A stretch of 64,000 bases of DNA from Candidatus Shapirobacteria bacterium (GCA_022837635.1 JALHFY010000001.1:234202-298201); one strand, 5' to 3'; positions 22,508 through 45,101 are shown, counted from the stretch's first letter. Notes: a model not told the origin generated them from the sequence alone. Program-made: numbers and translations.

Positions 22508-23422
22508 ATGAAAAAAATCTTAAACTTTAAAATTTTACAGTTTTTATTTTCGGGATTATTGATTTATTGGGCCTTTAGAAAGGTGGATGTGGGGGGATTA
22601 TTGCAGGAAATGTCTCGAGTGGAATGGTGGTGGATAGTGATTTTATTGGGATATACGGCGATATCGGTGTTGATTGGGGGTTGGCGTTGGGCAATTTTAG
22701 TTTTAGGAAAACCAAAACTTAGGCAAATTTTAGATTTTACCAAGGCGGCTTATGCGGGAGCTTTTTTTGCTCTTTTCTTCCCAACGGCTTTGGGTGGGGA
22801 TTTAGTGAAATGGACCACTTTGATTAAAAAATATCCGGAAGTTTCGAAAATGAAATTGGCCAGTTCGACCTTGATAGACAGAATTGTGGGCTTCAGTGCT
22901 TTTATAACGACAGCAATTATATCATTGTTACTAGGTAAAATTTTGAAATATAATTTTCCGACTTATTTAATGTGGTTGTTTTTGGGACTGGGTGGAGTGA
23001 CGATAATTTTTTATGTAATTGTTTTTCGGGTGGATTTTGAAAAATTATTGGCAAAGTATCAGTTTTTGAACAAGATGGTGGAAGTGATGGATATTTTAAA
23101 AAAGAGTCATCAGGATAGAATTTTAAGGTGTTATGGAATATCGCTAGTGGCTCAATTGTTTTGGTTGTGTCAAGTGTGGTTGGTGGGCCGGGCTTTAGGA
23201 GTGATAATGAATTTTATGGATATATTAATTTTTATGCCGGTAATATCGTTAATTTTAACTTTGCCGATTTCTTGGGCCGGTTTTGGAATGAGAGAAAACT
23301 TGTTTGTCTATTTCTTTTCGACGGTGGGTTACCAACCGGAACAAATGCTGTTAGTATCAACTTTCCTGGGAACTTTGGGAGTGTTGAACGCTCTTTTAGG
23401 TGGTCTTTTATTGATATTCTAG
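22508..23422 (+). CDS. Lysylphosphatidylglycerol-synthase-TM-region-like (UPF0104 flippase-like) membrane protein
   Basis: 304 aa polytopic protein. N-terminus FLFSGLLIYWAFRKVD......W.WIVILLGYTAISVLIGGWRW resembles the LPG_synthase_TM / flippase-like domain family. Confidence 0.5.
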   Translation: MKKILNFKILQFLFSGLLIYWAFRKVDVGGLLQEMSRVEWWWIVILLGYTAISVLIGGWRWAILVLGKPKLRQILDFTKAAYAGAFFALFFPTALGGDLVKWTTLIKKYPEVSKMKLASSTLIDRIVGFSAFITTAIISLLLGKILKYNFPTYLMWLFLGLGGVTIIFYVIVFRVDFEKLLAKYQFLNKMVEVMDILKKSHQDRILRCYGISLVAQLFWLCQVWLVGRALGVIMNFMDILIFMPVISLILTLPISWAGFGMRENLFVYFFSTVGYQPEQMLLVSTFLGTLGVLNALLGGLLLIF

Positions 23423-23706
23423 ATTTTAAGATAAAGTGTGGTCTCTAAACCTTGAGCGATTTTTTTCAATAGAGAGATAGAAGGATTGGCATTCATGGAT
23501 TCGAGACGACTGATGACTGCTTGGGTAGTTTGAGATTTTTTGGCCAAATCTCTTTGGGACATTTTTTTACGAAGACGTTTTTCAATAATTTGACGTGCCA
23601 AAAGATACTCAGGTTCGGATTCTTGCCAAGCTTTTTTGAATTTGGGATCTTTTAAAGACTGATTAAGATGTTGTCTAAATGTAGGTAATTTTTTAATATC
23701 AATCAT
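23419..23706 (-). CDS. HTH XRE-family antitoxin (HigA-like)
   Basis: 95 aa. MSQRDLAKKSQTTQAVISRLESMNANPSISLLKKIAQGL is a classic Cro/C1 HTH. Directly downstream of a Gp49/HigB-like ORF. Confidence 0.7.
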   Translation of the reverse strand: MIDIKKLPTFRQHLNQSLKDPKFKKAWQESEPEYLLARQIIEKRLRKKMSQRDLAKKSQTTQAVISRLESMNANPSISLLKKIAQGLETTLYLKI

Positions 23707-23730
23707 ACTTTTATGATATCTTAAAAGATA

Positions 23731-24075
23731 TCACTTGTCAATAATTTGATGATAACGGTTTAAAGCGATTTTAATTTCTTTGGATGGAGTTTTTTGTGAT
23801 TTTTTGAAAAATGCATGCAAAATAATAATGTCATTATCAATGACGGTAGCATAAATAATGCGAATATTATCCTGACCTAAAATACGAATCTCCCAAAGTG
23901 GAGTATTGGTAATCTTACGAATATGAGGCTGAATTGAAGAAAGTCCGTATTCTTCCAGATTCGAAAATATTCTAAAAATTTTAGCTTTTTGTTTGGGATT
24001 GAGAGAATCAATCCAATATCGGGGTGTTTGTTTGAGGGAAAGAGTGGGGCTTTGAAAGTAAATGACTTTATTCAT
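23731..24075 (-). CDS. Type II toxin, HigB / phage Gp49-like (RelE superfamily)
   Basis: 114 aa. ..LWEIRILGQDNIRIIYATVIDNDIIILHAFFKKSQKTPSKEIKIALNRY matches the Gp49-like (DUF891) / HigB killer-protein signature. The toxin-first order is typical of higBA. Confidence 0.6.
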   Translation of the reverse strand: MNKVIYFQSPTLSLKQTPRYWIDSLNPKQKAKIFRIFSNLEEYGLSSIQPHIRKITNTPLWEIRILGQDNIRIIYATVIDNDIIILHAFFKKSQKTPSKEIKIALNRYHQIIDK

Positions 24076-24158: not shown

Positions 24159-25127
24159 ATGATTTTAATTGTCGGTGGGGCCGGGTACATCGGCTCACAT
24201 GTAAACAAACTGTTAAATAAAAATGGCTATGAAACAGTCGTTTTTGATAATTTAGAAAAAGGTCACCGGGAAGCGGTCAAATGGGGTACATTGGAAGTTG
24301 GTGATTTAGGTAATATTGAAGAGATTGAAGCAGTTTTTAATAAATATCCAATTGAGGCGGTTTTTGATTTTGCTTCTTATATCGAGGTGGGTGAATCGGT
24401 TAAGGATCCGGAAAAATATTATTTGAACAACGTCAAAAATACTTTGAATTTGTTGTCGGTAATGAGAAAACATAATGTCAATAAAATTATTTTTTCCTCA
24501 ACAGCGGCGGTCTTTGGTATGCCGGAACGGATACCTATTAGCGAGGATGATGCGAAACAACCTATTAATCCCTATGGTAAGACTAAATTAATGGTGGAAA
24601 ATATTTTCAAGGATTATGATGCCGCCTATGGTTTAAGATTTGTGGCTTTCAGATACTTCAATGCTTGCGGAGCGGACAAGGATGGAGAAATCGGTGAATG
24701 GCATGAGCCAGAAAGTCATCTAATTCCCATACTTTTGGAAGTGGCTCAAGGTAAAAGAGAATTTTTTCAATTAAACGGGACGGATTATGCCACCGAGGAT
24801 GGAACCTGCATCAGAGATTATGTCCATGTGGAAGATTTGGCTCAAGCGCATTTATTAGGATTAAAACATCTATTGGATGGCGGTGAGAGTAAATTTTATA
24901 ACCTGGGTTCAGGTAAGGGTTATTCCAACAAACAAGTTATGGAGACGGCCAAAGAAGTCACCGGAGTTGATTTTAAGGTGGTTTATGGTCCTCGACGTGC
25001 AGGTGATCCGGATAAATTATTGGCCAGTTCGGAAAAAATAAAACAAGAATTGGGTTGGGAACCTAAATATACCGACTTAAAAGAAATAATTCAGACTGCT
25101 TGGAATTGGCAGCAGAAGAAAAATTAA
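24159..25127 (+). CDS. galE: UDP-glucose 4-epimerase
   Basis: MILIVGGAGYIGSH Rossmann start, S..YG.TK catalytic region (PYGKTKLMVE), ends DPD.L.A, 322 aa. Confidence 0.85.
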   Translation: MILIVGGAGYIGSHVNKLLNKNGYETVVFDNLEKGHREAVKWGTLEVGDLGNIEEIEAVFNKYPIEAVFDFASYIEVGESVKDPEKYYLNNVKNTLNLLSVMRKHNVNKIIFSSTAAVFGMPERIPISEDDAKQPINPYGKTKLMVENIFKDYDAAYGLRFVAFRYFNACGADKDGEIGEWHEPESHLIPILLEVAQGKREFFQLNGTDYATEDGTCIRDYVHVEDLAQAHLLGLKHLLDGGESKFYNLGSGKGYSNKQVMETAKEVTGVDFKVVYGPRRAGDPDKLLASSEKIKQELGWEPKYTDLKEIIQTAWNWQQKKN

Positions 25128-25128
25128 A

Positions 25129-26421
25129 ATGAAAAAAATAACAGTAATCGGTACCGGTTATGTAGGTTTGGTCACCGGGGCTTGTTTGGCCGATATCGGT
25201 CATCAAGTGATTTGTGTTGATATTGATAAGAAAAAGATTGAAAAGTTAAAAAAAGGGATTATCCCGATTTATGAACCGGGATTGGAGGAGATTGTTGATA
25301 AAAATTTTAAGTCGGGTAATTTACAATTTACCACTGACACTAAAAGTGCCGTTGAAGCTTCAGAAGTAATTTTTATTGCCGTGGGTACACCCTCTTTGCC
25401 CGATGGCACGGTCAATTTGGATTATGTGAAGTCGGCGGCTGAGGATATCGCCAAGGCTATGAATGGATACAAGGTGATTGTAGATAAATCAACAGTACCG
25501 GTGGGAACCGGTGATGTGGTGGGAAGGACTATTAGTCAATATTATTCAGGTGACTTTGATGTAGTATCTAACCCAGAATTCTTAAAAGAGGGTGATGCGG
25601 TGAAAGATTTTGTGAATCCGGACAGAATTGTGATTGGCTCCGATAGTAAAAAAGCGGAGGAAATTATGTTGTCTGTTTATGAAAAATTGGGTGGAGAGAG
25701 AGTTTTAACCAGTGTGAAAAACGCTGAGATGATTAAATATGCTTCAAATGCTTATTTGGCCACATCAATTTCTTTTATCAACTCAGTGGCCAATATTTGT
25801 GAAAAGGTGGGGGCTAACGTAGATGAGGTGGCCAGAGGCATGCGAATGGATAAAAGAATTGGACCTTATGCATTTTTGGCGGCAGGAGTGGGTTATGGAG
25901 GTTCTTGTTTTCCGAAAGATGTAAAGGGAATGATTCAGACGGCCAATGAAAACGGAGTCTCTTTTGAAATTTTGGATGCGGTGGAATCGGTCAATGAAGC
26001 GCAGAAAAAATCATTGTTGCCCAAGATTCAAAAATTGTTGGGAGAAGGTTTGTATAATAAAAAAATTGCCATTTGGGGTTTGGCTTTCAAGCCGGAAACT
26101 GATGATGTACGTGAATCCCCTGCTCTAGCCATTATCAAACAATTATATGATCGAGATGTAAAAGTAACTGCTTTTGACCCGATAGCGGCCGAAAATATGA
26201 AAAAAGAAGTTTCAAATTTGGAAACAACAAATGACATGTATGAGGCGATAAAAGATGCCGATTGTTTGGTGATTACTACAGCTTGGAAAATGTTTAAGGA
26301 AGCTGATTTAGATAAAGTAAAATCTTTATTAAAGTCTCCAAACATAGTCGATGGTCGAAATCTGTTTGATTTGAAAAAAATGAAAGAAATGGGTTTTAAT
26401 TACTTGTCGGTGGGACGATAA
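25129..26421 (+). CDS. ugd: UDP-glucose 6-dehydrogenase
   Basis: MKKITVIGTGYVGLVTGACLADIGHQVICVDID, GGSCFPKD catalytic Cys motif, 430 aa. Start overlaps the galE stop. Confidence 0.85.
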   Translation: MKKITVIGTGYVGLVTGACLADIGHQVICVDIDKKKIEKLKKGIIPIYEPGLEEIVDKNFKSGNLQFTTDTKSAVEASEVIFIAVGTPSLPDGTVNLDYVKSAAEDIAKAMNGYKVIVDKSTVPVGTGDVVGRTISQYYSGDFDVVSNPEFLKEGDAVKDFVNPDRIVIGSDSKKAEEIMLSVYEKLGGERVLTSVKNAEMIKYASNAYLATSISFINSVANICEKVGANVDEVARGMRMDKRIGPYAFLAAGVGYGGSCFPKDVKGMIQTANENGVSFEILDAVESVNEAQKKSLLPKIQKLLGEGLYNKKIAIWGLAFKPETDDVRESPALAIIKQLYDRDVKVTAFDPIAAENMKKEVSNLETTNDMYEAIKDADCLVITTAWKMFKEADLDKVKSLLKSPNIVDGRNLFDLKKMKEMGFNYLSVGR

Positions 26422-27387: not shown

Positions 27388-28101
27388 TTGGTAGTGAAGA
27401 AAATAAAAAAATTATCCATTGTAGTGCCAGTTTATAACGAAGAAAAAACAATTGAAAAATCACTCGAGCGACTATTTAATGTAGATTTTGGCACAATTAA
27501 ATTGGAAGTGATAGTGGTTAATGACGGCTCTAAAGATAAGACATTACAAGTGTTAAATACTTTAAGAAAAAAATATCCTTTTAAGTTAATTAGTTATAAG
27601 AAGAATAGAGGGAAAAGTTATGCTCTGAGACAGGGTTTTACTAAAACGACAGGTGATGTAGTAACGGTGCAAGATGGCGATTTGGAATATGATCCCAGCG
27701 ATTTCAAAAAGATGTTAAAGAAAATGTCTCAAAAAGAAGTGAAGGTGGTCTATGGTTCGCGGAGGTTAAATAAGAATAATAAACAGTACTCAGGTTTGAG
27801 TTTTTATTTGGGAGGTTTGCTATTAACTGAGATGGTGAATGTTTTATATGGAGGCAAAATTACCGATGAGCCGACATGTTACAAAATGTTTGAAGGTGAT
27901 TTATTAAGAAGTATTCCGTTAAAGTCCAATCGATTTGAATTTTGTCCCGAGGTGACAGCTAAGGTTTTAAGGAAAGGGATTCCGATTTATGAAGTACCGA
28001 TTTCTTATCAACCCCGTCATGCGGGTGAGGGTAAAAAAATAAAATTAAGAGATTTTTTTGAAGCTGCCTCAACTTTAATTAAGTATAAATTTGTGGATTA
28101 A
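27388..28101 (+). CDS. GT2 polyprenyl-phosphate sugar synthase-like (DPM1/GtrB/ArnC-type)
   Basis: 237 aa soluble GT-A. LSIVVPVYNEEKTIEKSLERL...VIVVNDGSKDKT...VTVQDGDLEYDP (the DGD..YDP region is typical of DPM1-like enzymes). Confidence 0.7.
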   Translation: MVVKKIKKLSIVVPVYNEEKTIEKSLERLFNVDFGTIKLEVIVVNDGSKDKTLQVLNTLRKKYPFKLISYKKNRGKSYALRQGFTKTTGDVVTVQDGDLEYDPSDFKKMLKKMSQKEVKVVYGSRRLNKNNKQYSGLSFYLGGLLLTEMVNVLYGGKITDEPTCYKMFEGDLLRSIPLKSNRFEFCPEVTAKVLRKGIPIYEVPISYQPRHAGEGKKIKLRDFFEAASTLIKYKFVD

Positions 28102-28676
28102 TGGACAGTAAAAATTTTAATCTGTTAGACAGATTCATAGCCACTTGCAGGTTATCCAGAGTCAATAAATATATAGAAAAGGGTGATGTGGTTTTAGATT
28201 TTGGTTGTGGGGCGAGATCTTATTTACTTGAGTCCCATCAAGATAAAATTAAAAAAGGAGTGGGTTTGGATTATGATGTGGAAAATCAAAAGTTTAATAA
28301 GATTGAATATTTAACATTTAAATTTAAAGATAGATTAGTTTTTGATAAGGAATATTTTGATAAAATTTTTTTATTGGCAGTCTTGGAACATATAGAACCC
28401 GAGCAAGTAAAAACTTTATTTAGAGAATTTAAAAAAATATTAAAACCGGAAGGTAAAATTGTCTTAACCACCCCCACTCCGAAAAGTAAGTCTGTTTTAG
28501 AGTGGTTAGCTTTTAGATTAAAGTTAATTTCTGAACAAGAAATCAAAGATCACAAAAAATATTATTCTAAAAAAGATATTTTAGAAATAGCCCAAAATTT
28601 AAATTTAAAAGTCACAATTTATAGATTATTTCAATGTGGTTTAAACAGTTATGCGGTTTTGGAAAAAGTTAATTAG
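28101..28676 (+). CDS. Class I SAM-dependent methyltransferase
   Basis: VLDFGCGARSYL (motif I), LLAVLEHIEPEQ, PEGKIVLTTP. Confidence 0.7.
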   Translation: MDSKNFNLLDRFIATCRLSRVNKYIEKGDVVLDFGCGARSYLLESHQDKIKKGVGLDYDVENQKFNKIEYLTFKFKDRLVFDKEYFDKIFLLAVLEHIEPEQVKTLFREFKKILKPEGKIVLTTPTPKSKSVLEWLAFRLKLISEQEIKDHKKYYSKKDILEIAQNLNLKVTIYRLFQCGLNSYAVLEKVN

Positions 28677-30285
28677 AATTTTTAATTTTAGTGTTGTTGG
28701 AACAGGACTGTTGGTTCCTTGGTTACTTTTCTTAAACAGATTTTTAATTCCCGATAATTCTTTTGATTCCATTAATTACCACTTATATTTAGGTTTTAAG
28801 TTTTTTCATCCGAAAAATAATTATTTGGAGTTTTATCCAACTGGTATACACAACTTTTCGTCGATTTTAGACATTCTGGGATATGTATTGATGAAAATAT
28901 TTGGTTATAGAATTGGCAGTATCGGATCACTTCTTTTTTTATATCTATCGATTTACTTAGTTTATAAATTATTAAAATTGTTTAAGGGAAAATATGATTT
29001 TTGGGGGCAATGGTGGTTTGGAATATTGTTTGTGAGCAGTTTTTTGTCTTTTGAATCTTTTTTACAAATTGCCACTTATTATGTGGATATTTCGGTAGCC
29101 TGTTTAATGTTGGCATCAACTTATTTTTTGTTTAAGTTTGAAAAGAAACAACAGGTGATTGATTTAGTTTTATCTGGATTATGTTTAGCTGTAGTGAGTT
29201 TGGGTAAAATGTCTGTTTGGTATTTTTGGCCGGTGTACTTTTTTTATTTGATATTTGTATTGCTTAAAAGAAAGAAAATAAGTTCAGCTAAAAAAAATAA
29301 ATATTTTTTAATTCCTGTATTGTGGTTAGTTTTATTTTTGTTGCCTGGATTTATAAAAAATTATACTCAAACTGGGAATCCGGTTTTTCCTTTTTATAAC
29401 GGGATATTCAAGTCAAAGTATTTTTCGGAGTCAAATTTTGCACAAGTAGTTTTTGGAGGACAGAATTTGAAGGAAAAAATCTTGTGGGGAATTTGTTCTA
29501 TCAAAAGTCCAGAGCGATTGGGGGAAGTTCATGATTTATTTAACGATTATAAAATTAATATTTATTTTATAGCGGTAATTTTTATATTGTTTTGGACTAG
29601 ATTAAAAAAAAGAAAGAATCTGTTTAAGGTGTCAATTTTTTATCTGACTTCTTTTTTGTGTTGGAGTGTGAGTTTTGGGTATTTGAGATATGCTTTGTTT
29701 TTGGAATTTTTAGGTGGAGGGTTAATCCTCTTATGGTTGAGTGAAATAGACAATAAATTTACTTGGTTGACTTTTCCGTTAATAGCGGTTCTGTTGTTAC
29801 AAGGAAAAAGAGTGGTTAATATGAGCTTAGCCTATGACATCAGCTTCAGACCAGGGTATTTTTATAACAGAGAGAGTTATCCTAAAGAGTATAAAAATTT
29901 TGGTAAAAATAAAATAGAATTTAAAAAAACAACAGATTTTAAACCTGATTATTATTTGAATTGTTCAACCCCTGGTATGACTTATTATGTTTTATCGGAC
30001 TTTAATAATTTACCGGTGAGAAATATTGATGTGAGAGCTTATTCTGATTTGACACAAAACAAGTATTACCAGGACAGAGTTGGTTTTAATGAAACAAAAT
30101 CCGAGGCAATCTATGTGACGATAGTGGGAAAAGATGGTTTAACGGATGAATATGAAAATTGTAAATCTAATCTAGAAAGGTATCGTTTTAAGATTTTAAG
30201 TGAGCAAAAAATAGATAATTTTTTGGGCTTTGAAAAGCAAAAACTTGTTTTGATATTTATTCAGATGCTAAACTCAGCTGAATGA
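28651..30285 (+). CDS. Large polytopic membrane protein with C-terminal extracytoplasmic domain, putative GT-C-type (lipid-carrier-dependent) glycosyltransferase
   Basis: 544 aa. About 11 TM helices in the first ~390 aa, then a ~150 aa soluble tail. Co-localised with two DPM1-like GT2 genes and a small membrane protein (GtrA/B/C-like module). No motif I can name with confidence. Confidence 0.35.
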   Translation: MRFWKKLIRIFNFSVVGTGLLVPWLLFLNRFLIPDNSFDSINYHLYLGFKFFHPKNNYLEFYPTGIHNFSSILDILGYVLMKIFGYRIGSIGSLLFLYLSIYLVYKLLKLFKGKYDFWGQWWFGILFVSSFLSFESFLQIATYYVDISVACLMLASTYFLFKFEKKQQVIDLVLSGLCLAVVSLGKMSVWYFWPVYFFYLIFVLLKRKKISSAKKNKYFLIPVLWLVLFLLPGFIKNYTQTGNPVFPFYNGIFKSKYFSESNFAQVVFGGQNLKEKILWGICSIKSPERLGEVHDLFNDYKINIYFIAVIFILFWTRLKKRKNLFKVSIFYLTSFLCWSVSFGYLRYALFLEFLGGGLILLWLSEIDNKFTWLTFPLIAVLLLQGKRVVNMSLAYDISFRPGYFYNRESYPKEYKNFGKNKIEFKKTTDFKPDYYLNCSTPGMTYYVLSDFNNLPVRNIDVRAYSDLTQNKYYQDRVGFNETKSEAIYVTIVGKDGLTDEYENCKSNLERYRFKILSEQKIDNFLGFEKQKLVLIFIQMLNSAE

Positions 30286-30956
30286 AAATTGTCATAGTGG
30301 TACCGGTGTATAATGAGGAGAAAAGGGTTGTAAATACAGTGAATGACATTTTAAGGGCAGATAAAAGTTCTCAAATTATTTTGGTTGATGATGGTTCCCG
30401 CGATAATTCTTATAAAATTTTAAAGAAGGCTTTTGGTAACAATAAAAGGGTGTCAATATTGCAACATATTATCAATCTGGGTAAGGGAGCGGCAATGAAA
30501 ACGGGAGTAAAAATGGCTTGGAAATTAAAATCAGATGGAGTTATTTTTATTGACTCTGATGGTCAACATAATCCTAAGCATTTACCTGAATTTAAAAAGG
30601 TTTTGAAAAAAAATGATTTAGTTTTTGGATATCGAAAATTAAATTCTGAAATGCCTTTCATTCGTAAATATGGCAACATTATCGCTAAAAAAATTATAGG
30701 AATTTTATTTAATGTCAAGAGAAGAGAATTTTTGTGTGGGTATCTAGGGTTTAGAAAATCGGTATATAAACAAATTAAGTGGCGATCAAATCGTTATGGA
30801 GTGGAGACAGAAATAGCGACAAAGGTGGGTAGAAATAAGTTGAAGTTTAGTGAAGTAGAAGTTGATACAATCTATATTGATAAATATAAAGGGGTATCGC
30901 TTTTTGATGCGATGAAAATATTAACCCAAATCCCCTATTGGTATTTTAGTAAATAA
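30282..30956 (+). CDS. GT2 polyprenyl-phosphate sugar synthase-like (DPM1/GtrB-type)
   Basis: MKIVIVVPVYNEEKRVVNTVNDIL...ILVDDGSRDNS...IFIDSDGQHNP (the DxDGQH..P region is typical of the DPM1/GtrB clade). Confidence 0.75.
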   Translation: MKIVIVVPVYNEEKRVVNTVNDILRADKSSQIILVDDGSRDNSYKILKKAFGNNKRVSILQHIINLGKGAAMKTGVKMAWKLKSDGVIFIDSDGQHNPKHLPEFKKVLKKNDLVFGYRKLNSEMPFIRKYGNIIAKKIIGILFNVKRREFLCGYLGFRKSVYKQIKWRSNRYGVETEIATKVGRNKLKFSEVEVDTIYIDKYKGVSLFDAMKILTQIPYWYFSK

Positions 30957-30962
30957 AAATTT

Positions 30963-31322
30963 ATGTCAATTGTAGGAGTTCAGTTAATCATCTTTGTATT
31001 TTCTTTTTTTATGTTGTACAACGTTTACTTATATTGGCGAAAGGGAGAAATAGGACTTCGAGGAGCGTTAATTTGGGTAATTATTTGGGGAGGACTTCTA
31101 ATAATTACATTTTTCCCAAAGTTTATTGAGCCATTAGTAAAAGAATTGTTTTTTGTGAGACTTTTTGATTTAGCGACTGTGGCGGCTTTGATTATTTTAG
31201 CTTATGTAATGTTTGAAAATCATGTAAGAATTAATAAACTTCAAAAACAAATATCGAAGATTGTTCAAAGAACAGCGGTTAAAAATGTATTAAAGAAGGT
31301 GAATGAGACAAAGAAAAAATGA
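30963..31322 (+). CDS. Small 3-TM membrane protein with basic coiled C-tail (DUF2304-like companion of DPM1-type GT2s; possible GtrA-like flippase role)
   Basis: 119 aa with three hydrophobic helices and a Lys-rich C-terminus. Immediately after a DPM1-like GT2, the position where DUF2304/GtrA-type proteins are found. Confidence 0.4.
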   Translation: MSIVGVQLIIFVFSFFMLYNVYLYWRKGEIGLRGALIWVIIWGGLLIITFFPKFIEPLVKELFFVRLFDLATVAALIILAYVMFENHVRINKLQKQISKIVQRTAVKNVLKKVNETKKK

Positions 31323-32136
31323 ATATGTAATTACTCCACCAAAGGGATTGGTAGATATTAATTTACCGGAGATTTGGCGTTATAAGGAATTACTATATAC
31401 TTTTACTTGGAGAGATATTAAAGTTCGCTATAAGCAAACAGTTTTAGGTATTGTCTGGGCAATATTTCAACCACTTTTTACTATGATTATTTTTACAGTT
31501 TTTTTTGGTAATTTAGCTAAAATTCCTTCAGATGGGGTTCCTTACCCAATTTTTGTTTATTCTGGCTTGTTGTTTTGGATATATTTTTCCAATTCTTTAA
31601 CAAATGCCAGTAATTGTATGGTGAATAATGAGGGAATAATTAAAAAAATTTATTTTCCGAGGTTATTATTGTCGATTAGTGCCATACTGACACCGGTTAT
31701 TGATTTTTGTTTTTCTTCTATAGTTTTTTTAGGGTTAATGATAGTTTTTAGGTTTGTACCTAATTTTTGGGGATTACTAATGGTGCCATTATTATTATTG
31801 ATTTCAATGGTGACTGCTTCTGGAATTGGCTTGTTTTTAACATCGGTAAATGTAAAATATCGAGATGTGCGTTATATTTTGCCGTTTTTTATTCAAATTT
31901 TAATGTTTATCACTCCAGTTATTTATCCTGTTAGTATAATTCCTGAGAACTATAAATGGTTGGCTTATTTTAATCCAATGACAGGTGTAATTAATTCAGC
32001 TAGGGTTTTGATTTTAGGTGGGGGAAATATTGATTGGGTGGGGATTTGTATTTCGATAATTGCGGCAATAATATATTTTATTTTAGGATTGATATATTTC
32101 AGAAAAACTGAAAGGTTTTTTGCGGATATCATTTAG
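31303..32136 (+). CDS. wzm: ABC-2 type polysaccharide/O-antigen export permease (Wzm/TagG-like)
   Basis: RYKQTVLGIVWAIFQPLFTMIIF ABC-2 signature, 6 TM, 277 aa. Confidence 0.8.
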   Translation: MRQRKNEYVITPPKGLVDINLPEIWRYKELLYTFTWRDIKVRYKQTVLGIVWAIFQPLFTMIIFTVFFGNLAKIPSDGVPYPIFVYSGLLFWIYFSNSLTNASNCMVNNEGIIKKIYFPRLLLSISAILTPVIDFCFSSIVFLGLMIVFRFVPNFWGLLMVPLLLLISMVTASGIGLFLTSVNVKYRDVRYILPFFIQILMFITPVIYPVSIIPENYKWLAYFNPMTGVINSARVLILGGGNIDWVGICISIIAAIIYFILGLIYFRKTERFFADII

Positions 32137-32141
32137 TTAAA

Positions 32142-33398
32142 ATGGCAAAACCAATAATAACAGTAGAAAATTTAAGTAAAAAATATGCTTTGGGTGAAAA
32201 GCAAAGTTTTTATACTTTACGCGATTCAATAAGTGGTTTTTTTGTTGGTAAAAAAAATAAAGAAGAGGAATTTTGGGCACTTAAAGATATTAATTTTGAA
32301 ATAAAACAAGGTGAATCAGTGGGAATAATTGGTCGAAATGGAGCGGGTAAAAGTACTTTACTAAAAATTTTATCACAAATTACTCCGCCTACTACGGGGA
32401 AAATTACAATGAGAGGTAGAGTTGCCTCTTTGTTGGAAGTGGGTACAGGTTTTCATCAAGAGTTGACAGGGAGAGAAAATATATTTTTGAATGGGGCAAT
32501 TTTGGGAATGTCGAGAGAAGAGGTAAAGAAGAAATTCGATGAAATTGTGGCGTTCTCTGAAATAGAGAAATTTTTAGATATGCCAGTAAAGCATTATTCT
32601 TCGGGAATGTATATGAGATTGGCTTTTGCAGTAGCGGCGCATTTAGAATCAGAGATTTTAATTGTAGATGAGGTATTGGCTGTAGGTGACGCTCAGTTTC
32701 AAAAAAAATGTTTGGGTAAAATGGATGAGGTAGCAAAGAAAGAAGGACGAACAGTTTTGTTTGTAAGTCATAATATGGGGGCTATAAAGAGCTTATGTTC
32801 TAGAAGTATGATTATTGAAAAAGGAAAAATAGAGCTAATTGGAGAGTCAGAGAAGGTTGTACGTCAGTATATAAATGAATCAAACAATTATTCAAAAAAT
32901 AATTCAATTCATTATGACAAGCTAGTATATATTGAAAATGTTGAAATTTTAAGTTCAGAGGGTTATCAGAAGTCTAGTTTTTTAACAACAGAAGATGTTC
33001 ATGTTAAAGTTAATTTTGTTGTTAAAGAGGCTCTGAAATTAGGAAATTATTGTGGGTTAATTATTTTGGATGAATTTCAAAATATATTGATAATGGCTTA
33101 TGATATTGACAGTAATAGTAAGTATTATAAATTTAGACCTCCTGGAAAATATGAGGTAACTTTTACTATAGGAAAAAATATTCTTAATGAACAGGTTGTG
33201 AATTTAAATGTAGTTTGTGGAATTCCTTTGAAATACAACAATAGTCCGTATAAAAATTTATATTTTGATTCTTGGACTGGAATTAGTTTCCGTTTATATA
33301 ACACTAATAGTTTTTCTAGGGATTATTTTGGAGGACAAAGATCTGGTGTTATGCTTTTAAAAATTAATAGTCAGGTTAAGTGTCGGAAAATCGAATAA
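32142..33398 (+). CDS. wzt: ABC transporter ATP-binding protein Wzt/TagH-like with C-terminal ~170 aa beta-rich extension (Wzt_C-type carbohydrate-binding domain candidate)
   Basis: Walker A GIIGRNGAGKSTLLKIL, signature YSSGMYMRLAFA, Walker B ILIVDEVLAVGD, H-loop VSHN. Residues ~245-418 form an extra domain absent from the second transporter ATPase at 46000-46821. Confidence 0.8.
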   Translation: MAKPIITVENLSKKYALGEKQSFYTLRDSISGFFVGKKNKEEEFWALKDINFEIKQGESVGIIGRNGAGKSTLLKILSQITPPTTGKITMRGRVASLLEVGTGFHQELTGRENIFLNGAILGMSREEVKKKFDEIVAFSEIEKFLDMPVKHYSSGMYMRLAFAVAAHLESEILIVDEVLAVGDAQFQKKCLGKMDEVAKKEGRTVLFVSHNMGAIKSLCSRSMIIEKGKIELIGESEKVVRQYINESNNYSKNNSIHYDKLVYIENVEILSSEGYQKSSFLTTEDVHVKVNFVVKEALKLGNYCGLIILDEFQNILIMAYDIDSNSKYYKFRPPGKYEVTFTIGKNILNEQVVNLNVVCGIPLKYNNSPYKNLYFDSWTGISFRLYNTNSFSRDYFGGQRSGVMLLKINSQVKCRKIE

Positions 33399-34822
33399 TG
33401 AAAAGAAAATACTTGATTATAATAGCGGGTTGGCATTTCAATTTGTCTGATTTTTATTTGAGTTTATTGGATATTTCAAAAAAAAATCAAGTTGATTTTT
33501 TTATCTCATCCCACAAAGATTTCTCGGAAATAGATAATAAAATTATGGAGTGTATTAAAAACATACCTAGATGTGAAATTGTGAGTTTTGAGAATGAAGG
33601 ATTTGATTGGGGAATATATTCCCAAGCGTTATCGTATTTAGGAGAAAGAATATTTGACTATGAGTATATTTGTTTTATGCACGATGATATTGAAATAAAG
33701 GATTCTAATTTTTTAAATATATTTTCGAAATATATAAGCGATAATAATTTCATGGTTTTGGGTAATTGTAAGAACTCTGTTAATCAAAATTTTACAAGAT
33801 CTCATCCACATGTAATACGTTGGTTGAAAAGTGATTATCACATAGTGTTAAAAAACAAAAAATGGAATACTGTTAGGGGAAGTTGTTTTATGGTTGTACC
33901 AGAAATATTTAAGAAAATAAAGGTTTTGCCATATAAAAAAGGAGATAATTCTGGATTTGGAAATTGGAGTGTTATTGCTTTTGGAGGTATTGTGACTGAT
34001 TTATATGGAAAAAATAGTATCGGCACAATAAGCAACAAACAATTAAAGTCTGATTATATTATTGAATATGAAAGAGGTTTTTCAAGTAAAAGTGTTCAGA
34101 GTGAAATAAGGGAAATCTCAAAAAATGTAAACTCTTTGCTTTATAGATTAAAAGAAGTTGGTTATTCGATTCGGAGATATTATGTGGATAAATTCTTTTT
34201 TGAAAACATTAAATATTTTAATAAAAATGATAGGATCTTGGACGTTGGTGGAAAAAAAATAAACAAGCGAGGATATTTTGATATTGAAAAATATCCTCTA
34301 AAGACTAGTTATTTAAATTTAGATAAATCGACAAAACCAGATTTGTTAGCTGATGCTGCAAATATTCCAACAAAAAATAATTTTTATGATGGAATAGTTT
34401 TGGGAGAAGTTATGGAGCATGTTTCAGAACCTGAAACTGTTTTAAGGGAATGTATCAGAGTACTTAAATCAAAGGGTAAAATTATTATTACTGTCCCTTT
34501 TATGTATCCAATTCATGCTGATCCTTATGATTATGGACGATATACCTTGACTTATTGGAAAAGAATGTTTGACAGGTGTGGTCTAAAGGTATTGGTTGTA
34601 ACCAATCATGGAACATACTTTGCGGTTTTAGCAAATATGTTTAAATTAGGAATTAATGAAATGTTTCAGAAACCGCAAAGATTATTAAGAAAAAAATTCT
34701 TAAACTCATTAATGATTATTGTTATAAAAATATTAATGTATTTTGATGATAAGTTTTCTAAATCGCGAAATTGGTTAATTTCAGGATCTACTACGGGTTA
34801 TGGTTTTGTATTAGAGAAATAG
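33380..34822 (+). CDS. Two-domain protein: N-terminal RgpF (rhamnan synthesis F)-like domain fused to C-terminal class I SAM methyltransferase
   Basis: N-terminus KYLIIIAGWHFNLSDFYLSLL..VDFFISSHK resembles the RgpF-family start (kiav.vHlyY.dl..e..yl...fdlyiTt). C-terminus ILDVGGKKIN..(motif I-like)..GIVLGEVMEHVSEPE..LKSKGKIIITVP (MT motifs). Overlaps the wzt stop by 19 nt. Confidence 0.55.
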   Translation: MSENRIMKRKYLIIIAGWHFNLSDFYLSLLDISKKNQVDFFISSHKDFSEIDNKIMECIKNIPRCEIVSFENEGFDWGIYSQALSYLGERIFDYEYICFMHDDIEIKDSNFLNIFSKYISDNNFMVLGNCKNSVNQNFTRSHPHVIRWLKSDYHIVLKNKKWNTVRGSCFMVVPEIFKKIKVLPYKKGDNSGFGNWSVIAFGGIVTDLYGKNSIGTISNKQLKSDYIIEYERGFSSKSVQSEIREISKNVNSLLYRLKEVGYSIRRYYVDKFFFENIKYFNKNDRILDVGGKKINKRGYFDIEKYPLKTSYLNLDKSTKPDLLADAANIPTKNNFYDGIVLGEVMEHVSEPETVLRECIRVLKSKGKIIITVPFMYPIHADPYDYGRYTLTYWKRMFDRCGLKVLVVTNHGTYFAVLANMFKLGINEMFQKPQRLLRKKFLNSLMIIVIKILMYFDDKFSKSRNWLISGSTTGYGFVLEK

Positions 34823-34848
34823 ATTATTGGCGTTATTGAGGTAAGAAG

Positions 34849-35910
34849 ATGAAATTTTTATCTAGAGACAATAGAAAAAATAATATAATAAAAATAGGTT
34901 GGGTGGTATATGAGTCCTGGGTTAATGGAGTTAGGTCTGTAAAATCTTTTAAGGATGTTGTATCAGAAATTAGGTGTAAAAATATTCTATTGGAATTGAA
35001 TAGACATAATAGATTTTTTAATGAGATTTACGATTCGAGTAAAAAATATGATTTGGTTGTTTTTGTAAAAGTTATGGATGAAGAATGTCAATTTGAAGTA
35101 AAAAAAATTAAAGAATATGGAGGGAAGGTGATATTTGATGCCAATGTGAATTATTTTGAGATTTGGGGGGATTATTTTATTGAAGGTACAAAACCAACTG
35201 CATTACAAAACAAAAATTCTATAAAAATGGCAAGTATTTGTGACTGTGTAATTGGAGATTCAGAATACATTACCAAGATTGCTTCAAAATATTCTAAGAA
35301 AACTGTTTGTATTCCAGATTCGGTTGATATGGCTTTGTATAGTGGTCAAGTTAGTTATCTAGATAAAAAAATGATTAGATTAATTTGGAGTGGTGTTAGC
35401 AAGAAATCCTTACATTTTTATGAGATAATTCCGGTTTTGTCTAAAATTTCAAAAGAGTTTAGTGTTCAATTAACTTTAGTTTCAGATAGGAAACCAGAGA
35501 TTTTTAATGAGATTTCACAAGTGATAAATACTAAATGGATTAAGTTTAGTCATAGAAAGTATATTTCCAAATTATTAGCATCAGATATTATTATTTCGCC
35601 TAAAAGATTAATAAATGGGTATGAATTAGGACATACTGAATACAAGATAACTCTTGGTATGGCGCTTGGTTTGCCTGCGATTGCTAGTCCTCAATTATCG
35701 TACGTTAATGCGTTACGATATGGTGGTGGTATTATTGCTTCAACTGAAACTGAATGGTATCTTGCATTAAGAAAACTTATATCTTCATCTATGCTTAGAG
35801 AAAAGATGGGAATTAAAGCTAAAAATACTGTGAAAAAATATTATAGTCTTACTATTATTCTTAAAAAATATGTTGATTTATTTAATGATTTATTGAGATA
35901 TGGAGAGTAG
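34849..35910 (+). CDS. Putative glycosyltransferase (GT-B-like C-terminal domain)
   Basis: 353 aa. C-terminal GMALGLPAIASPQLSYVNALRYGGGIIASTETEW resembles GT-B donor-binding helix regions. Weak. Confidence 0.35.
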   Translation: MKFLSRDNRKNNIIKIGWVVYESWVNGVRSVKSFKDVVSEIRCKNILLELNRHNRFFNEIYDSSKKYDLVVFVKVMDEECQFEVKKIKEYGGKVIFDANVNYFEIWGDYFIEGTKPTALQNKNSIKMASICDCVIGDSEYITKIASKYSKKTVCIPDSVDMALYSGQVSYLDKKMIRLIWSGVSKKSLHFYEIIPVLSKISKEFSVQLTLVSDRKPEIFNEISQVINTKWIKFSHRKYISKLLASDIIISPKRLINGYELGHTEYKITLGMALGLPAIASPQLSYVNALRYGGGIIASTETEWYLALRKLISSSMLREKMGIKAKNTVKKYYSLTIILKKYVDLFNDLLRYGE

Positions 35911-36850
35911 AATTTTTAAGTATTTTAATAGAAAATTATTAGGTGAAAAGATTTCATTTTTTCATGAGTTTAGACCAGCACCGTATGGTGGTTCAAATTC
36001 TTTTTTTATTGCTTTGAAAGGTTATCTTGAATCAAGAGGTATTTTAGTGGATGTTAATTTGGTAAAAAGAAATACTGAAGTGGTTCTACTTAACGCATTT
36101 TTATTTGATGAAAAAAAATTAGAAAATTATAAAAACCGGTATCCTGATATTAAAATTATTCATAGAATTGATGGCCCAGTAAGTGCTCATCGAGCGATAG
36201 AATTAGATATAGACAGACAGTTATTAGAGTTAAATACTAAATTTGCTGATAGAACAATTATTCAATCAGAATACAGTAAAAAAAAGAGTGAAGATTTAGG
36301 ATTATTTTTTAAAAATCCAGTTGTTATACATAATGCCGCAAACCCTTTATTTTTTAATCGAAATGATAAAAGTAAATTTAATAAAGATAAGGTTAAGATT
36401 ATTGCTTCAAGTTGGTCTGATAATAGAAAAAAAGGTGCTGAAGTATATAGATGGCTTGAGAATGAATTAGATTGGAGTGTATATGAATTTACTTTTGTAG
36501 GTAGATTACCAATTAAATTAAAAAGGGCAAAACATATTGATGCTTGCCCTCCTGAAGAATTGTCAAGATATCTTAAAAATAGCGACATATATATTACTGC
36601 TTCTGAAAATGATTCTTGTTCAAATTCATTAATTGAGGCATTAAGTTGTGGTTTACCAGCGATATATTTAAATTCTGGCGGTCATCCTGAAATTGTGAAA
36701 AATGCAGGTATTGGCTTTAGTAAAAATGAAGAGATTATAGGTGCTCTAGATAAGATTAGACAAAATTATTATTTTTACCAGAATAATATTGAGGTATTAG
36801 GAATGGAACAAGTTGCAAAAAAGTATTTAGATGTTATGTTTCAAGAGTGA
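35900..36850 (+). CDS. Glycosyltransferase, GT4-like
   Basis: C-terminal NSLIEALSCGLPAIYLNSGGHPEIVKNAGIGF (GT4 E-x7-E-like). Confidence 0.55.
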   Translation: MESRIFKYFNRKLLGEKISFFHEFRPAPYGGSNSFFIALKGYLESRGILVDVNLVKRNTEVVLLNAFLFDEKKLENYKNRYPDIKIIHRIDGPVSAHRAIELDIDRQLLELNTKFADRTIIQSEYSKKKSEDLGLFFKNPVVIHNAANPLFFNRNDKSKFNKDKVKIIASSWSDNRKKGAEVYRWLENELDWSVYEFTFVGRLPIKLKRAKHIDACPPEELSRYLKNSDIYITASENDSCSNSLIEALSCGLPAIYLNSGGHPEIVKNAGIGFSKNEEIIGALDKIRQNYYFYQNNIEVLGMEQVAKKYLDVMFQE

Positions 36851-37920: not shown

Positions 37921-37931
37921 GATGTACATTT

Positions 37932-40161: not shown

Positions 40162-40574
40162 TCTATAGTTTGAAGAAATACTGAGAAAGAATGGTAACAA
40201 AAAGGAAATTGCAAGTGTAAATATGGCTGAAATATTTTTTGATTTCCACAAGTTATTTATTTTTTACCTTTTATTTTGTAAAGAATCAGTATTAATAATG
40301 TTGAAGCTAAAGTAACTATTATTGAGAATTTGAAATAAAATGAGAGACGAGTGATGTAGTATAAATCTGAATTCTAACTTGGAACAATGTTTTTTATTAG
40401 GATATATACTGATGAGATATTATTTTTGATATATAAAAAGTACAAAGTGAGATATGACGAAAGAAAAATGAGTAGGTATTGAATTGATTATTAAAAACAA
40501 GACTGGGATGAGGGAGAAGAACAGCAGAAAAGGTAAAAATGAGAGATAATAGGTAATCATTTAATATAAATTAT
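40162..40574. other. Unusually long (~410 bp) AT-rich non-coding spacer between same-strand GT genes
   Basis: No ORF longer than ~30 aa on either strand, in a locus where neighbouring genes otherwise overlap. A-rich runs (aaaaaggaaa, gaaagaaaaatgag, gagaagaacagcagaaaaggtaaaaatgagagataatagg). Function unknown (promoter/leader, small RNA, or decayed gene). Confidence 0.3.
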
Positions 40575-42207: not shown

Positions 42208-42263
42208 GTCGAAACTTTAGTTATTATAACTGTTTTTATAATATATTTAGGTATAATTGATTA

Positions 42264-44939: not shown

Positions 44940-45097
44940 TTAAGAACTTTTTGAAATAATCTAGTGAGAAAATGGGGTTTATCGAGAGTAAGTCGAAGGA
45001 CTCGATTGGTTTCTATTTCTTTGGCGAGTAAAGAACGGAGTCGAAGATTTTCATTTTCGAGACGAATTATTTTTTGAGAGATATTTTTTGTAGTCAT
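44936..45097 (-). CDS. Small ORF (53 aa) with coiled-coil character, translationally coupled to the downstream GT2
   Basis: Hand-translated minus strand: MTTKNISQKIIRLENENLRLRSLLAKEIETNRVLRLTLDKPHFLTRLFQKVLK. Its TGA overlaps the ATG of 43995-44939 (ATGA junction). Below the size cut-off of the supplied ORF track. Confidence 0.3.
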   Translation of the reverse strand: MTTKNISQKIIRLENENLRLRSLLAKEIETNRVLRLTLDKPHFLTRLFQKVLK

Positions 45098-45101
45098 TTA
45101 C

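Follow-up and report, generated by a model that had tools for sequence, protein, structure and literature searches.

Gene content and operon structure

The window, a stretch of 64,000 nucleotides (64 kb) from a Candidatus Shapirobacteria bacterium, holds a glycan-assembly locus, and inside it sits a five-gene module. The earlier note had placed five ORFs at 27388-31322, and all five were confirmed there on the + strand. The module and the surrounding genes that bear on its interpretation are as follows:

22508-23422, + strand: standalone MprF-type (LPG_synthase_TM) flippase-like membrane protein (PF03706, 2.1e-33)
24159-26421, + strand: GalE (UDP-glucose 4-epimerase) and UDP-glucose 6-dehydrogenase (UGDH), nucleotide-sugar supply
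27388-28101, + strand: GT2a, 237 aa, TTG start
28101-28676, + strand: small SAM-dependent methyltransferase, 191 aa
28651-30285, + strand: membrane protein of predicted GT-C fold, 544 aa
30282-30956, + strand: GT2b, 224 aa
30963-31322, + strand: DUF2304 three-TM protein, 119 aa
31303-32136, + strand: Wzm-type ABC-2 permease (ABC2_membrane, 4.9e-23, Pfam)
32142-33398, + strand: Wzt-type ABC ATPase with an extended C-terminal domain (ABC_tran, 1e-22, Pfam)
42264-44018, + strand: DUF2142 polytopic protein (PF09913, 1.1e-42)

From GT2a to the Wzt-type ATPase, neighbouring stop and start codons overlapped or lay ≤6 nt apart, and the genes therefore form a single operon. The start of the DUF2304 gene follows the GT2b stop codon by 7 nt, and its end shares a 20-nt overlap with the gene of the Wzm-type permease. 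An alternative start of GT2a (ATG, 6 nt downstream) results in a protein of 235 aa and is used by gene callers elsewhere. The Wzt-type ATPase additionally showed a weak match to Wzt_C (3.1e-4, residues 261-350, Pfam). GalE matched PDB entry 8wxk with 4.4e-112, and UGDH was called by its domains.

The five module genes are genuine. Each has many conserved homologues, and the arrangement recurs in several independent metagenome assemblies. A small GT2 of the DPMS/GtrB type was found adjacent to the GT-C gene or within ~4 kb of it in 11 of 13 genome loci, and likewise near it in all three long contigs with close GT-C homologues that were looked up. Such a GT2 was absent within the flank examined in L011 and L012 (distant members from Saccharimonadales) and in L027. 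In close relatives, GT2a and the methyltransferase stay beside the GT-C gene. In the more distant loci L007, L008 and L010, a GT2b-like gene is retained, accompanied or not by DUF2304. The genes of L006 run methyltransferase, GT-C, GT2a, DUF2142, GT2b and DUF2304, with the last two placed after the DUF2142 gene. Both GalE and UGDH lie directly upstream of the GT-C homologue in five loci (L001, L004, L005, L019 and L020), and partial sets occurred in L003 (GalE only), L018 (UGDH only) and L002 (UGDH truncated).

Family, fold and topology of the module proteins

The 544 aa protein scored below every curated family threshold, and no relative was detectable in the PDB by sequence. Its only Pfam match was to PMT_2 and sub-threshold (21.0 bits versus a cutoff of 26.1, E 4.1e-4). 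PMT_2 (PF13231) was matched by 32 of its 49 relatives at E≤0.01, and a few of these exceeded the threshold (e.g. P0003 with 27.0 and P0058 with 29.4 bits). By these scores, the protein is a fringe relative of PMT_2 and not a formal member. Other relatives bear DUF8201, a recent Pfam family. The comparison with the PMT_2 and DUF2142 proteins of the window itself (hhalign) was not significant.

The predicted fold is unambiguously GT-C. The best structural matches were PMT and ArnT, at an identity of only 10-13%; ArnT, ALG and Aft enzymes scored nearly as well, and STT3, PglB and AglB were among the top matches. The protein shares the polytopic fold common to ArnT, PMT, STT3, ALG and Emb enzymes. 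About 11-12 TM helices were predicted, and the predicted topology has the N-terminus inside and a C-terminal alpha/beta domain of ~140 aa outside. Hence, fold and topology agree with the claim of the earlier note that this is a GT-C transferase with an extracytoplasmic C-terminal domain, and the protein could not be placed in any family of transporters or polymerases. Across 49 sequences, D39 was invariant and D35 was conserved in at least 90%. Both are part of IPDxSFDSxNYH, which directly follows the helix at 2-30 (TM1) in the first extracytoplasmic loop. The invariant acidic and aromatic residues thus sit just behind TM1, and every other invariant polar residue maps to the end of a loop or helix that the positive-inside rule puts on the outside. 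The family has its own motifs (NRFLIPDxSFDSxNYHLY, GYRLG, TGNPVFPFYN and FGYLRYA). Among the relatives, P0421 carries an N-terminal GtrA_DPMS_TM domain, P0430 has C-terminal choline-binding repeats and P0386 gave a weak CBM_4_9 match. The same note had suggested that the family may be new. The sub-threshold scores and the lack of a PDB relative by sequence are in line with this, while the PMT_2 and DUF8201 matches of the relatives and the GT-C fold are not. The protein is a divergent, uncharacterised GT-C subfamily (PMT_2/DUF8201-like) and not a new kind of enzyme.

Both small glycosyltransferases matched PF00535 (GT2) in Pfam (GT2a 5.9e-33, GT2b 3.2e-26), and TM helices were predicted in neither. 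The best PDB match of GT2a was the Pyrococcus dolichol-P-mannose synthase 5mlz (1.9e-19, phmmer), with residues 7-226 aligned to 23-239 and thus to the full catalytic domain. DGDLEYDP of GT2a aligned to DADLQHPP (the DxD metal site), and RHAGEGKK to RARGESK; we take this C-terminal R..GE(S)K to be the acceptor-phosphate motif. The best NCBIfam match of GT2a was AglJ (TIGR04182, 5.7e-25, 88.3 bits versus a cutoff of 325), and it also fell below other equivalog cutoffs (ArnC, 65.3 versus 529; DPhHxTase, 40.6 versus 375). For GT2b, the top NCBIfam match was PpgS (NF058614, 1.2e-19, 70.6 bits versus an equivalog cutoff of 370), with residues 4-215 of 224 aligned to model positions 3-217 of 226. 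GtrB (5ekp) was matched by GT2a with 1.3e-15 and by GT2b with 1.9e-9 (PDB), the synthase activity being putative; both also had ArnC and DPMS among their best PDB relatives, and DSDGQHNP of GT2b aligned to DADLQDPP.

The two GT2s are thus most similar to DPMS, GtrB, ArnC and PpgS, as expected from their earlier description as Pren-P-sugar synthases. GT2a is a TM-less GT-A of the DPMS/AglJ type and a putative polyprenyl-phosphate hexose synthase. GT2b is a TM-less GT-A of the GacI/PpgS type and the putative catalytic subunit of a polyprenyl-phosphate HexNAc synthase. Neither comes near its NCBIfam equivalog cutoffs, and the sugars named here are therefore putative. A DxDGxxxP motif had been ascribed to both; it is literal in GT2b and reads DGDLEYDP in GT2a. 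The claim of a duplicated system did not hold: the identity between the two was just 28%, and to judge from their sequences they belong to two different subfamilies.

The 119 aa protein matched DUF2304 (PF10066, 3e-15, 56.8 bits versus a cutoff of 25.5, positions 2-104 of 106). This was its only Pfam match, with none to GtrA_DPMS_TM. Three TM helices were predicted, and the basic C-terminal tail contains 11 K/R. Its gene directly follows GT2b here and in L006 and adjoins it in L010; the GT2b-like genes of L004, L007, L008 and L020 have no neighbouring DUF2304 gene. The DUF2304 protein GacJ co-purifies with GacI, forms a complex with it and stimulates it. Similarly, Rv3632 of the DUF2304 family is in complex with PpgS and stimulates it. 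GT2-DUF2304 fusions occur naturally. By analogy with GacJ and Rv3632, the 119 aa protein presumably activates GT2b as its membrane partner and is not a flippase.

The 191 aa protein matched Methyltransf_23 (1.4e-15, Pfam) and is a small class I SAM-dependent methyltransferase. It is a conserved partner of GT2a, whose orthologues adjoin a methyltransferase gene in 8/8 loci. We propose a lipid-linked or nucleotide sugar donor as its substrate.

Proposed pathway and alternatives

Homology, fold and synteny make it likely that these genes serve glycosylation outside the cytoplasm, after export, as a module of an ABC-transporter-dependent surface-glycan operon. At the cytoplasmic face, the two different TM-less GT-As would each use a nucleotide sugar to charge polyprenyl phosphate with a sugar. 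GT2b and the DUF2304 protein would form a complex, in which the latter anchors and activates GT2b, and the product would probably be polyprenyl-P-HexNAc. The methyltransferase may act on a donor prior to flipping. The lipid-linked sugars would then be flipped, and at the outer face of the membrane the 544 aa GT-C would take one from a polyprenyl-phosphate-linked donor, supplied by whichever GT2 feeds it, and pass it to an acceptor. The predicted active site is built from D35, D39, Y43 and H44 of the acidic outer loop behind TM1, together with further invariant residues that face outward. Most likely, the acceptor would be the polymer that Wzm/Wzt, encoded in the same operon, export. Known three-component systems act on ABC-exported glycans, and auxiliary enzymes remodel lipid-linked donors in them. 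Where DUF2142 proteins occur in the cell-wall polysaccharide loci of Gram-positives, they are regarded as transferases or polymerases of a GT-C-like kind; the one at 42264-44018 is possibly a second extracytoplasmic transferase, which could use either donor.

For the flipping step, no GtrA, Wzx or SMR-type gene was present among window ORFs of ≥70 aa with ≥3 predicted TM helices or among the window ORFs scanned with Pfam, where GtrA (PF04138) gave no match; no other small polytopic ORF of that size and helix number qualified as a GtrA-type flippase, and none of the established flippase families was found in the 64 kb. Of the polytopic ORFs in the window, just the MprF-like 22508-23422 was flippase-like; it also matched TIGR00374 ('flippase-like domain', 1.2e-11, NCBIfam). 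Its gene precedes the GT-C module in conserved synteny in L003, L004, L006, L019 and L020, and HexF is a proposed precedent. We infer that no other protein of the window is a candidate for this step.

With the donor chemistry unchanged, the 544 aa GT-C could instead be a PMT-like protein O-glycosyltransferase acting on secreted, S-layer or pilus proteins. This appears unlikely: the gene is co-transcribed with Wzm/Wzt inside the glycan-assembly locus, and the choline-binding repeats and the weak CBM_4_9 match place carbohydrate- or cell wall-binding domains at the C-terminus of relatives. Moreover, PMT_2 includes ArnT-like lipid or glycan transferases, with the near-equal fold scores of ArnT, ALG and Aft pointing the same way, and the protein of the pilus-locus case was undetected by the A1 profile.

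The earlier note had read the 119 aa protein as a GtrA-type flippase, which would make the module a classical Gtr three-component system with the GT-C using the Pren-P-sugar of the adjacent GT2. In its size and its place beside the GT-C and a GtrB-like GT2, the protein recalls the gtrA-gtrB-gtr* arrangement, the flippase step has no other assigned gene in the operon, and a second role for DUF2304 proteins is compatible with existing data. We give this reading only a small chance. The profile search returned DUF2304 above threshold and not GtrA, on a protein with three TM helices, and the proposed flippase of the Gac system is a separate Wzx-type protein, GacK. The binding and stimulation of the synthase by GacJ and Rv3632, like the natural GT2-DUF2304 fusions, fit a subunit better than a transporter.

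In a further reading, the 544 aa protein would transfer, ligate or polymerise a polyprenyl-diphosphate-linked glycan en bloc, with the flanking GT2s as ordinary cytoplasmic chain builders. This is highly improbable. Over the full catalytic domain, the best alignments of these GT2s are to Pren-P-monosaccharide synthases, and GT2b comes with a DUF2304 protein, the kind of partner that marks Pren-P-HexNAc synthases. The pair of GT-C and small GT2 is kept where the only other neighbours found were GalE/UGDH (L001-L005), and a relative carries a fused GtrA, which is a domain linked with the pathways of Pren-P-monosaccharides. PglB, AglB and WpsJ are thought to use polyprenyl-diphosphate-linked oligo- or polysaccharides, and what speaks for such a role here is the presence of STT3, PglB and AglB among the top fold matches, the final transfer that an ABC-exported polymer requires (no LCP, WaaL or Wzy genes were noted near the module) and the proposal of DUF2142-type GT-C proteins for such a transfer in Gram-positive loci.

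Post-export glycosylation is therefore the reading we keep. The GT-C fold and the synthase-like GT2s uphold the broad scheme in which a lipid-linked donor serves glycosylation outside the cytoplasm, and the earlier interpretation is partly supported overall, with the small protein falling into a non-flippase family. The module is a largely ordinary gene set that would add sugars to an extracellular surface polymer from lipid-carried donors in an uncultivated CPR-type (Patescibacteria) bacterium. Its sole unexplained part is the conserved methyltransferase partner.

Comparison with known systems

Unlike PMT and ArnT, the 544 aa protein has family motifs of its own, and the identity to them is low. 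GT2a resembles DPMS, with which it aligns over the catalytic domain including the DxD and acceptor-phosphate motifs. Like GT2a, human DPM1 lacks TM helices, and as a catalytic subunit it relies on the small membrane proteins DPM2/DPM3; in contrast, a membrane subunit of GT2a was not identified.

As in Gtr O-antigen glucosylation and the GT136 pentofuranose systems, a putative Pren-P-sugar synthase would work with an extracytoplasmic GT-C acting post-polymerisation, and the GtrA fusion found in a remote relative of this GT-C family recalls Gtr. However, no GtrA, SMR or MATE flippase was found among the polytopic ORFs of the window, both GT2s lack the C-terminal TM helices of GtrB, and the auxiliary enzyme is a methyltransferase instead of an epimerase or phosphatase.

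Mycobacterium tuberculosis PpgS (Rv3631, a polyprenyl-P-GalNAc synthase) and Rv3632 provide the best NCBIfam match and the same Pfam family of the small partner. As GT2b is far below the equivalog threshold, its sugar may differ, and a counterpart of the mycobacterial acceptor (arabinogalactan) and its transferase was not identified here.

The Group A carbohydrate system of Streptococcus pyogenes comprises GacI (GT2), GacJ (DUF2304), GacL (GT-C), the ABC exporter GacD/E and GacK (Wzx). The module differs in its host (Candidatus Shapirobacteria versus a Firmicute), in having no Wzx-type GacK homologue and in the insertion of the extra synthase GT2a and the methyltransferase. GT2b is distant from characterised enzymes, and the 544 aa GT-C probably belongs to another, divergent family than GacL. 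In both systems, a TM-less GtrB-like GT2 is directly followed by a 3-TM DUF2304 gene with a polytopic GT-C alongside, the backbone exporter (Wzm/Wzt type) is part of the operon, and decoration is, or here would be, post-export.

Gene organisation and the 544 aa protein

All five open reading frames of the module proposed in the earlier note were found at the positions given there, all on the + strand, and they continued directly into at least seven more + strand genes. The genes up to the first ABC exporter were as follows:

27388–28101 (+), GT2a, small GT2
28101–28676 (+), MTase, 191 aa methyltransferase
28651–30285 (+), 544 aa polytopic protein (GT-C)
30282–30956 (+), GT2b, small GT2
30963–31322 (+), 119 aa small protein
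31303–32136 (+), Wzm
32142–33398 (+), Wzt

From GT2a through Wzt, start and stop codons overlapped or lay ≤6 nt apart, and the genes were therefore taken as one operon. GT2a and MTase shared a TAATG, GT-C and GT2b an ATGA, and longer overlaps occurred between MTase and GT-C (26 nt) and between the 119 aa protein gene and Wzm (20 nt). The sole opposite-strand reading frame of the module region (28286–28546, 86 aa) lay inside the MTase gene and was without support. The same gene arrangement was present in several independent metagenome assemblies. A promoter/terminator scan was uninformative (74 promoter-like sites observed vs 87 expected by chance), and tRNA and Rfam scans of the window gave no RNA features.

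Pfam identified GT2 domains in GT2a (5.9e-33) and GT2b (3.2e-26) and a class I methyltransferase in the 191 aa protein (1.4e-15). No TM helices were predicted in either GT2, and three were predicted in the 119 aa protein. The G+C content fell from ~37–38% (~38% in the GalE and UGDH genes) to 27–31% from the MTase gene onward, i.e. inside the module, and remained low to ~46 kb (window ~28000–46000, roughly 18 kb). Low G+C is typical for variable surface-glycan loci, and the drop would fit a region of glycan specificity that varies or is exchanged horizontally.

The 544 aa protein is a predicted GT-C glycosyltransferase. Family profiles gave weak matches to PMT_2 (21.0 bits, below the Pfam threshold of 26.1) and LIC_10190 and no others. 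A PDB sequence search gave no match even at E≤10, either with the protein alone or with a 49-sequence profile, and the assignment was hence made by fold comparison only. The AlphaFold model, built with 49 homologues as input, was confident (pLDDT 90.7, pTM 0.92), with ~11 TM helices and, after them, an alpha/beta domain of ~140 residues at the C-terminus. In a Foldseek search against the PDB, the best ~30 matches were all GT-C enzymes, with ArnT first. PMT_2 was matched by 32 of the 49 family members, and some matched the recent Pfam entry DUF8201. Using hhalign, the family profile matched neither the PMT_2 protein of the window at 59584–61140 (probability 1.2%) nor its DUF2142 protein (probability 0.6%) significantly, at a sensitivity limited by the single-sequence templates.

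The topology was derived from the model helices and the positive-inside rule. These placed the N-terminus (MRFWKKLIR) and two loops, KRKKISSAKKNK (~206–217) and KKRKN (~319–323), on the inner side. The protein was thus N-in and C-out, which supports the extracytoplasmic tail expected in the earlier note. All invariant polar residues (D35, D39, Y43, H44, R87, D146, K186, R346 and R400) were located on the predicted outer face, as was the TGNPVFPFYN loop. Judged from the sequence and the secondary-structure string, this would be the layout expected for a GT-C active site.

The family is large. In an exhaustive profile search, at least 531 representative clusters passed E≤1e-30, and the number rose to 3,702 with a cutoff of E≤1e-10. 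Three distant members carried additional domains, namely an N-terminal GtrA_DPMS_TM domain (P0421, 1.1e-23), C-terminal choline-binding repeats (P0430) and a weak CBM_4_9 match (P0386). These fusions would fit an enzyme dependent on Pren-P-sugars with its C-terminus toward the cell wall. An alternative role as en bloc ligase or polymerase is disfavoured by the GtrA fusion and by the recurrent pairing of the family with monosaccharide-type synthases.

Two putative synthases and a probable DUF2304 subunit

GT2a and GT2b appear from their sequences to be different kinds of putative polyprenyl-phosphate sugar synthase. The earlier note had described the module as duplicated. The two proteins are only 28% identical, and a recent duplication was rejected on this ground.

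The nearest solved structure to GT2a was the Pyrococcus dolichol-phosphate mannose synthase (1.9e-19), followed by GtrB and ArnC. The alignment spanned the full catalytic domain of the Pyrococcus enzyme, with DGDLEYDP on DADLQHPP and RHAGEGKK on RARGESK. The top NCBIfam model was AglJ, far below its equivalog cutoff. For GT2b, the nearest solved structures were GtrB and ArnC (DSDGQHNP on DADLQDPP). Its top NCBIfam model was PpgS, matched over the full length (1.2e-19) and likewise far below the equivalog cutoff. PpgS is the mycobacterial polyprenyl-P-GalNAc synthase.

The 119 aa protein matched DUF2304 near full length and above threshold (Pfam, 3e-15). By analogy with characterised DUF2304 proteins, it is a putative synthase subunit and not a flippase. 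GacJ, a DUF2304 protein with three TM helices whose gene directly follows gacI, co-purifies with GacI, whose catalytic efficiency it increases (bioRxiv 10.1101/180810). In M. tuberculosis, PpgS is likewise stimulated by Rv3632, and natural GT2-DUF2304 fusions exist (bioRxiv 10.1101/180810). The GT2b-DUF2304 pair of the window shows the same pattern as GacI/GacJ. The family assignment and the published biochemistry contradict the GtrA flippase that the small protein had been taken for. Annotation should be corrected accordingly: a DUF2304 protein beside a small GT2 is better described as a synthase subunit than as a flippase.

The pair recurred in locus L006, at identities of 60% and 74%, and a more distant version was present in the Dormiibacterota locus L010. 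Since four loci had a GT2b-like gene with no adjoining DUF2304 gene (L004, L007, L008 and L020), the pairing is frequent and not universal.

Gene neighbourhoods of the GT2a-methyltransferase pair

Genome loci were scanned with the closer homologue set of the 544 aa protein. Of the 13 genome loci, 11 had a small DPMS/GtrB-type GT2 adjacent to the homologue or within ~4 kb of it, and so did each of the three long contigs examined that carry close homologues (L018–L020). The exceptions were two Saccharimonadales loci (L011, L012) and the distant member L027. Three arrangements were found:

Arrangements of homologues around the 544 aa GT-C (L numbers are loci or contigs)
(a) GT2a (~235 aa, 0 TM helices), MTase and GT-C: window, L006, L018, L019, L020
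(b) GT-C, then a ~310 aa GT2 with 2–3 C-terminal TM helices (GtrB/ArnC-like), no MTase: L001, L002, L003, L005
(c) GT-C with a GT2b-like gene: L004, L007, L008, L010

Locus L026, grouped with (a), was truncated, and its MTase adjoined GT-C. Many of the homologues found for GT-C, MTase and GT2a lay on contigs of identical length, an indirect hint that arrangement (a) is common. The records of L001, L003, L007, L008 and L013 are MAGs labelled 'uncultured Gammaproteobacteria' ('binchicken' and SRP co-assembly isolates). Their genes were closest to Shapirobacteria/CPR, and the label looks unreliable.

Starting from the MTase, the GT2a-MTase pair was also found in Roizmanbacteria, Nomurabacteria and another genome. 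The polytopic partners there were different 10–12 TM proteins, i.e. DUF6311 and proteins of 563 and 484 aa without assignment, and the 544 aa family profile matched none of them. Among the loci examined in which the MTase had enough flank, a GT2a orthologue adjoined it in eight of eight. An obligatory MTase for the GT2a family was rejected: GT2a-like genes (~54% identity) occurred with no MTase in a Woesearchaeota genome and one other, beside 11–12 TM proteins. These partners were proteins of 620 and 661 aa without assignment (L024 5001–7609 and L025 3001–5702, respectively). GT2a-like proteins of ~54% identity were present in DPANN archaea (Woesearchaeota, Nanoarchaeota), which points to a pairing of GT2a with polytopic proteins that is ancient or horizontally shared between CPR bacteria and DPANN archaea.

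In Candidatus Nomurabacteria (GCA_026396015.1, L022 2608–5582), a GT2a orthologue, the 563 aa 12-TM protein and an MTase orthologue were flanked by type IV pilus assembly genes (T2SSE/T2SSF) and by prepilin peptidase and pilin genes. The setting suggests that the same donor cassette serves to glycosylate pilin.

Given these neighbourhoods, GT2a and MTase form the constant unit and the polytopic transferase the variable one. The MTase would therefore be tied to the donor and not to the acceptor. If it modifies the transferred sugar, it would act before flipping, because a soluble SAM-dependent enzyme must be cytoplasmic. Its fold comparison gave no substrate clue.

A tentative and rather doubtful reading is that GT2a and MTase are a conserved donor cassette, mainly of CPR, for a methylated polyprenyl-phosphate sugar that is installed by interchangeable GT-C-like transferases. 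The methyl group would be added in the cytoplasm, at the lipid-linked or nucleotide-sugar stage. Transferases of unrelated families (the 544 aa family, DUF6311, the 484 aa protein and the 563 aa protein of the pilus locus) would place the sugar on different acceptors. If true, this would be a four-component pathway of extracytoplasmic methyl-glycosylation with an MprF-like flippase, of which no description was found in the literature searched. Searches on polyprenyl, methyltransferase, GT-C and Patescibacteria gave no described arrangement of GT2, methyltransferase and GT-C, and no paper on DUF6311 was found. No known three-component system accounts for the role of the tightly conserved GT2-methyltransferase pair. 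Known steps of donor remodelling are those of epimerases, deformylases and deacetylases, to which an MTase acting on the lipid-linked donor would add a new kind.

The glycan locus and the proposed mechanism

The whole 64 kb window is a glycan-assembly locus. It contained numerous GT1, GT2 and GT4 genes, two Wzm/Wzt pairs, several methyltransferases, a radical SAM enzyme, a Wzy_C-like protein, two PMT/PMT_2 proteins and a GalE/UGDH pair. The closest homologues of the region's genes belonged to Patescibacteria, among them Candidatus Shapirobacteria, and the source is thus probably a CPR bacterium. A decarboxylase route of the ArnA or UXS type for UGDH and the SDR was rejected, as the SDR is a clear GalE. 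Further features were as follows:

22508–23422, standalone LPG_synthase_TM (MprF flippase-like) protein
42264–44018, DUF2142 polytopic protein (1.1e-42), GT2 genes on both sides
56946–57761 (−) and 58811–59587 (−), small GT2s
59584–61140 (−) and 61121–62731 (−), adjacent PMT/PMT_2 proteins
62709–63977 (−), 422 aa protein without family assignment, 9 TM helices

The last five genes make up a further putative GT-C and GT2 module (56946–63977, −). The Wzt ATPase of the operon (418 aa) had a long C-terminal extension with a weak Wzt_C match (3.1e-4). It was followed, with overlap, by a 480 aa protein with a Methyltransf_11 domain at its C-terminal end (window 32142–34822). Together they resemble the coupling of a Wzt carbohydrate-binding module with a chain-terminating methyltransferase of the WbdD type, a feature of ABC-transporter-dependent O-antigen pathways. 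The second Wzm/Wzt pair (46000–47545, −) lay at the far edge of the low-G+C block, and because of it the locus may export two different polymers. Next to it (47580–50280) were a CofD-like gene (2-phospho-L-lactate transferase family) and, after it, the gene of a 576 aa protein that combines ~8 TM helices with TPR repeats at its C-terminus, an architecture known in some membrane glycosyltransferases. The radical SAM protein (503 aa, 54516–56027, −) was located among GT2 and methyltransferase genes and hints at an unusual sugar modification. A pair of a Gp49/HigB-like toxin and an HTH antitoxin (23419–24075, −) lay between the LPG_synthase_TM gene and GalE. In L019, a relative with just 46% identity in its GT-C, the same pair occupied the identical position.

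No GtrA, Wzx/MATE or SMR candidate was found among the polytopic reading frames of the window. The LPG_synthase_TM protein was its sole flippase-like protein (PF03706 at 2.1e-33; TIGR00374 'flippase-like domain'), and L003, L004, L006, L019 and L020 had its gene in synteny, upstream of the module. The standalone MprF-like protein HexF of C. difficile has been proposed, not shown, to flip the glycolipid of a neighbouring glycosyltransferase (PMC10128005). As the flippase of the module's donors, the LPG_synthase_TM protein is a speculative candidate.

In the proposed mechanism, GT2a (with the MTase) would charge polyprenyl phosphate with one sugar on the cytoplasmic face, and GT2b (with the DUF2304 protein) would do likewise. 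By analogy with GacI and PpgS, the product of GT2b is probably a HexNAc. The lipid-linked donors would then be flipped, and the 544 aa GT-C would pass a sugar to an acceptor on the outer face, most likely the polymer exported through the co-transcribed Wzm/Wzt. The other GT-C-type proteins of the window (the DUF2142 and both PMT_2 proteins) may draw on whichever of the two donors this GT-C does not use. The gene order in the Shapirobacteria relative L006 (MT, GT-C, GT2a, DUF2142, GT2b, DUF2304) suggests two adjacent sub-modules. As the DUF2142 homologue is located there between GT2a and the GT2b-DUF2304 pair, the DUF2142 protein of the window may be a transferase using the GT2b donor.

CPR/Patescibacteria are mostly uncultivated, host-dependent bacteria, and to our knowledge their surface-glycan chemistry is essentially unknown. 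In the literature searched, no description was found for four points: a conserved cassette of GT2a and methyltransferase whose polytopic partners are interchangeable, an MprF-like candidate instead of a canonical flippase, a large GT-C subfamily that has motifs of its own and for which no characterised member was found, and the CPR setting. With its clear signature motifs and informative fusions, this family lends itself to characterisation and perhaps to a CAZy classification.

The kind of system is already known, i.e. extracytoplasmic GT-C glycosylation from Pren-P-sugar donors with a two-subunit synthase of the GacI/GacJ type, and the locus does not overturn current understanding. Its predicted functions suggest that CPR use the logic of lipid-linked donors and GT-C transferases, the same as in Gram-positive cell-wall polysaccharide and O-antigen modification systems. 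The proposed module follows the logic of GacI/J/L with GacDE (bioRxiv 10.1101/180810) and of the three-component systems that modify O antigens of the ABC-transporter-dependent kind (PMC11127046).
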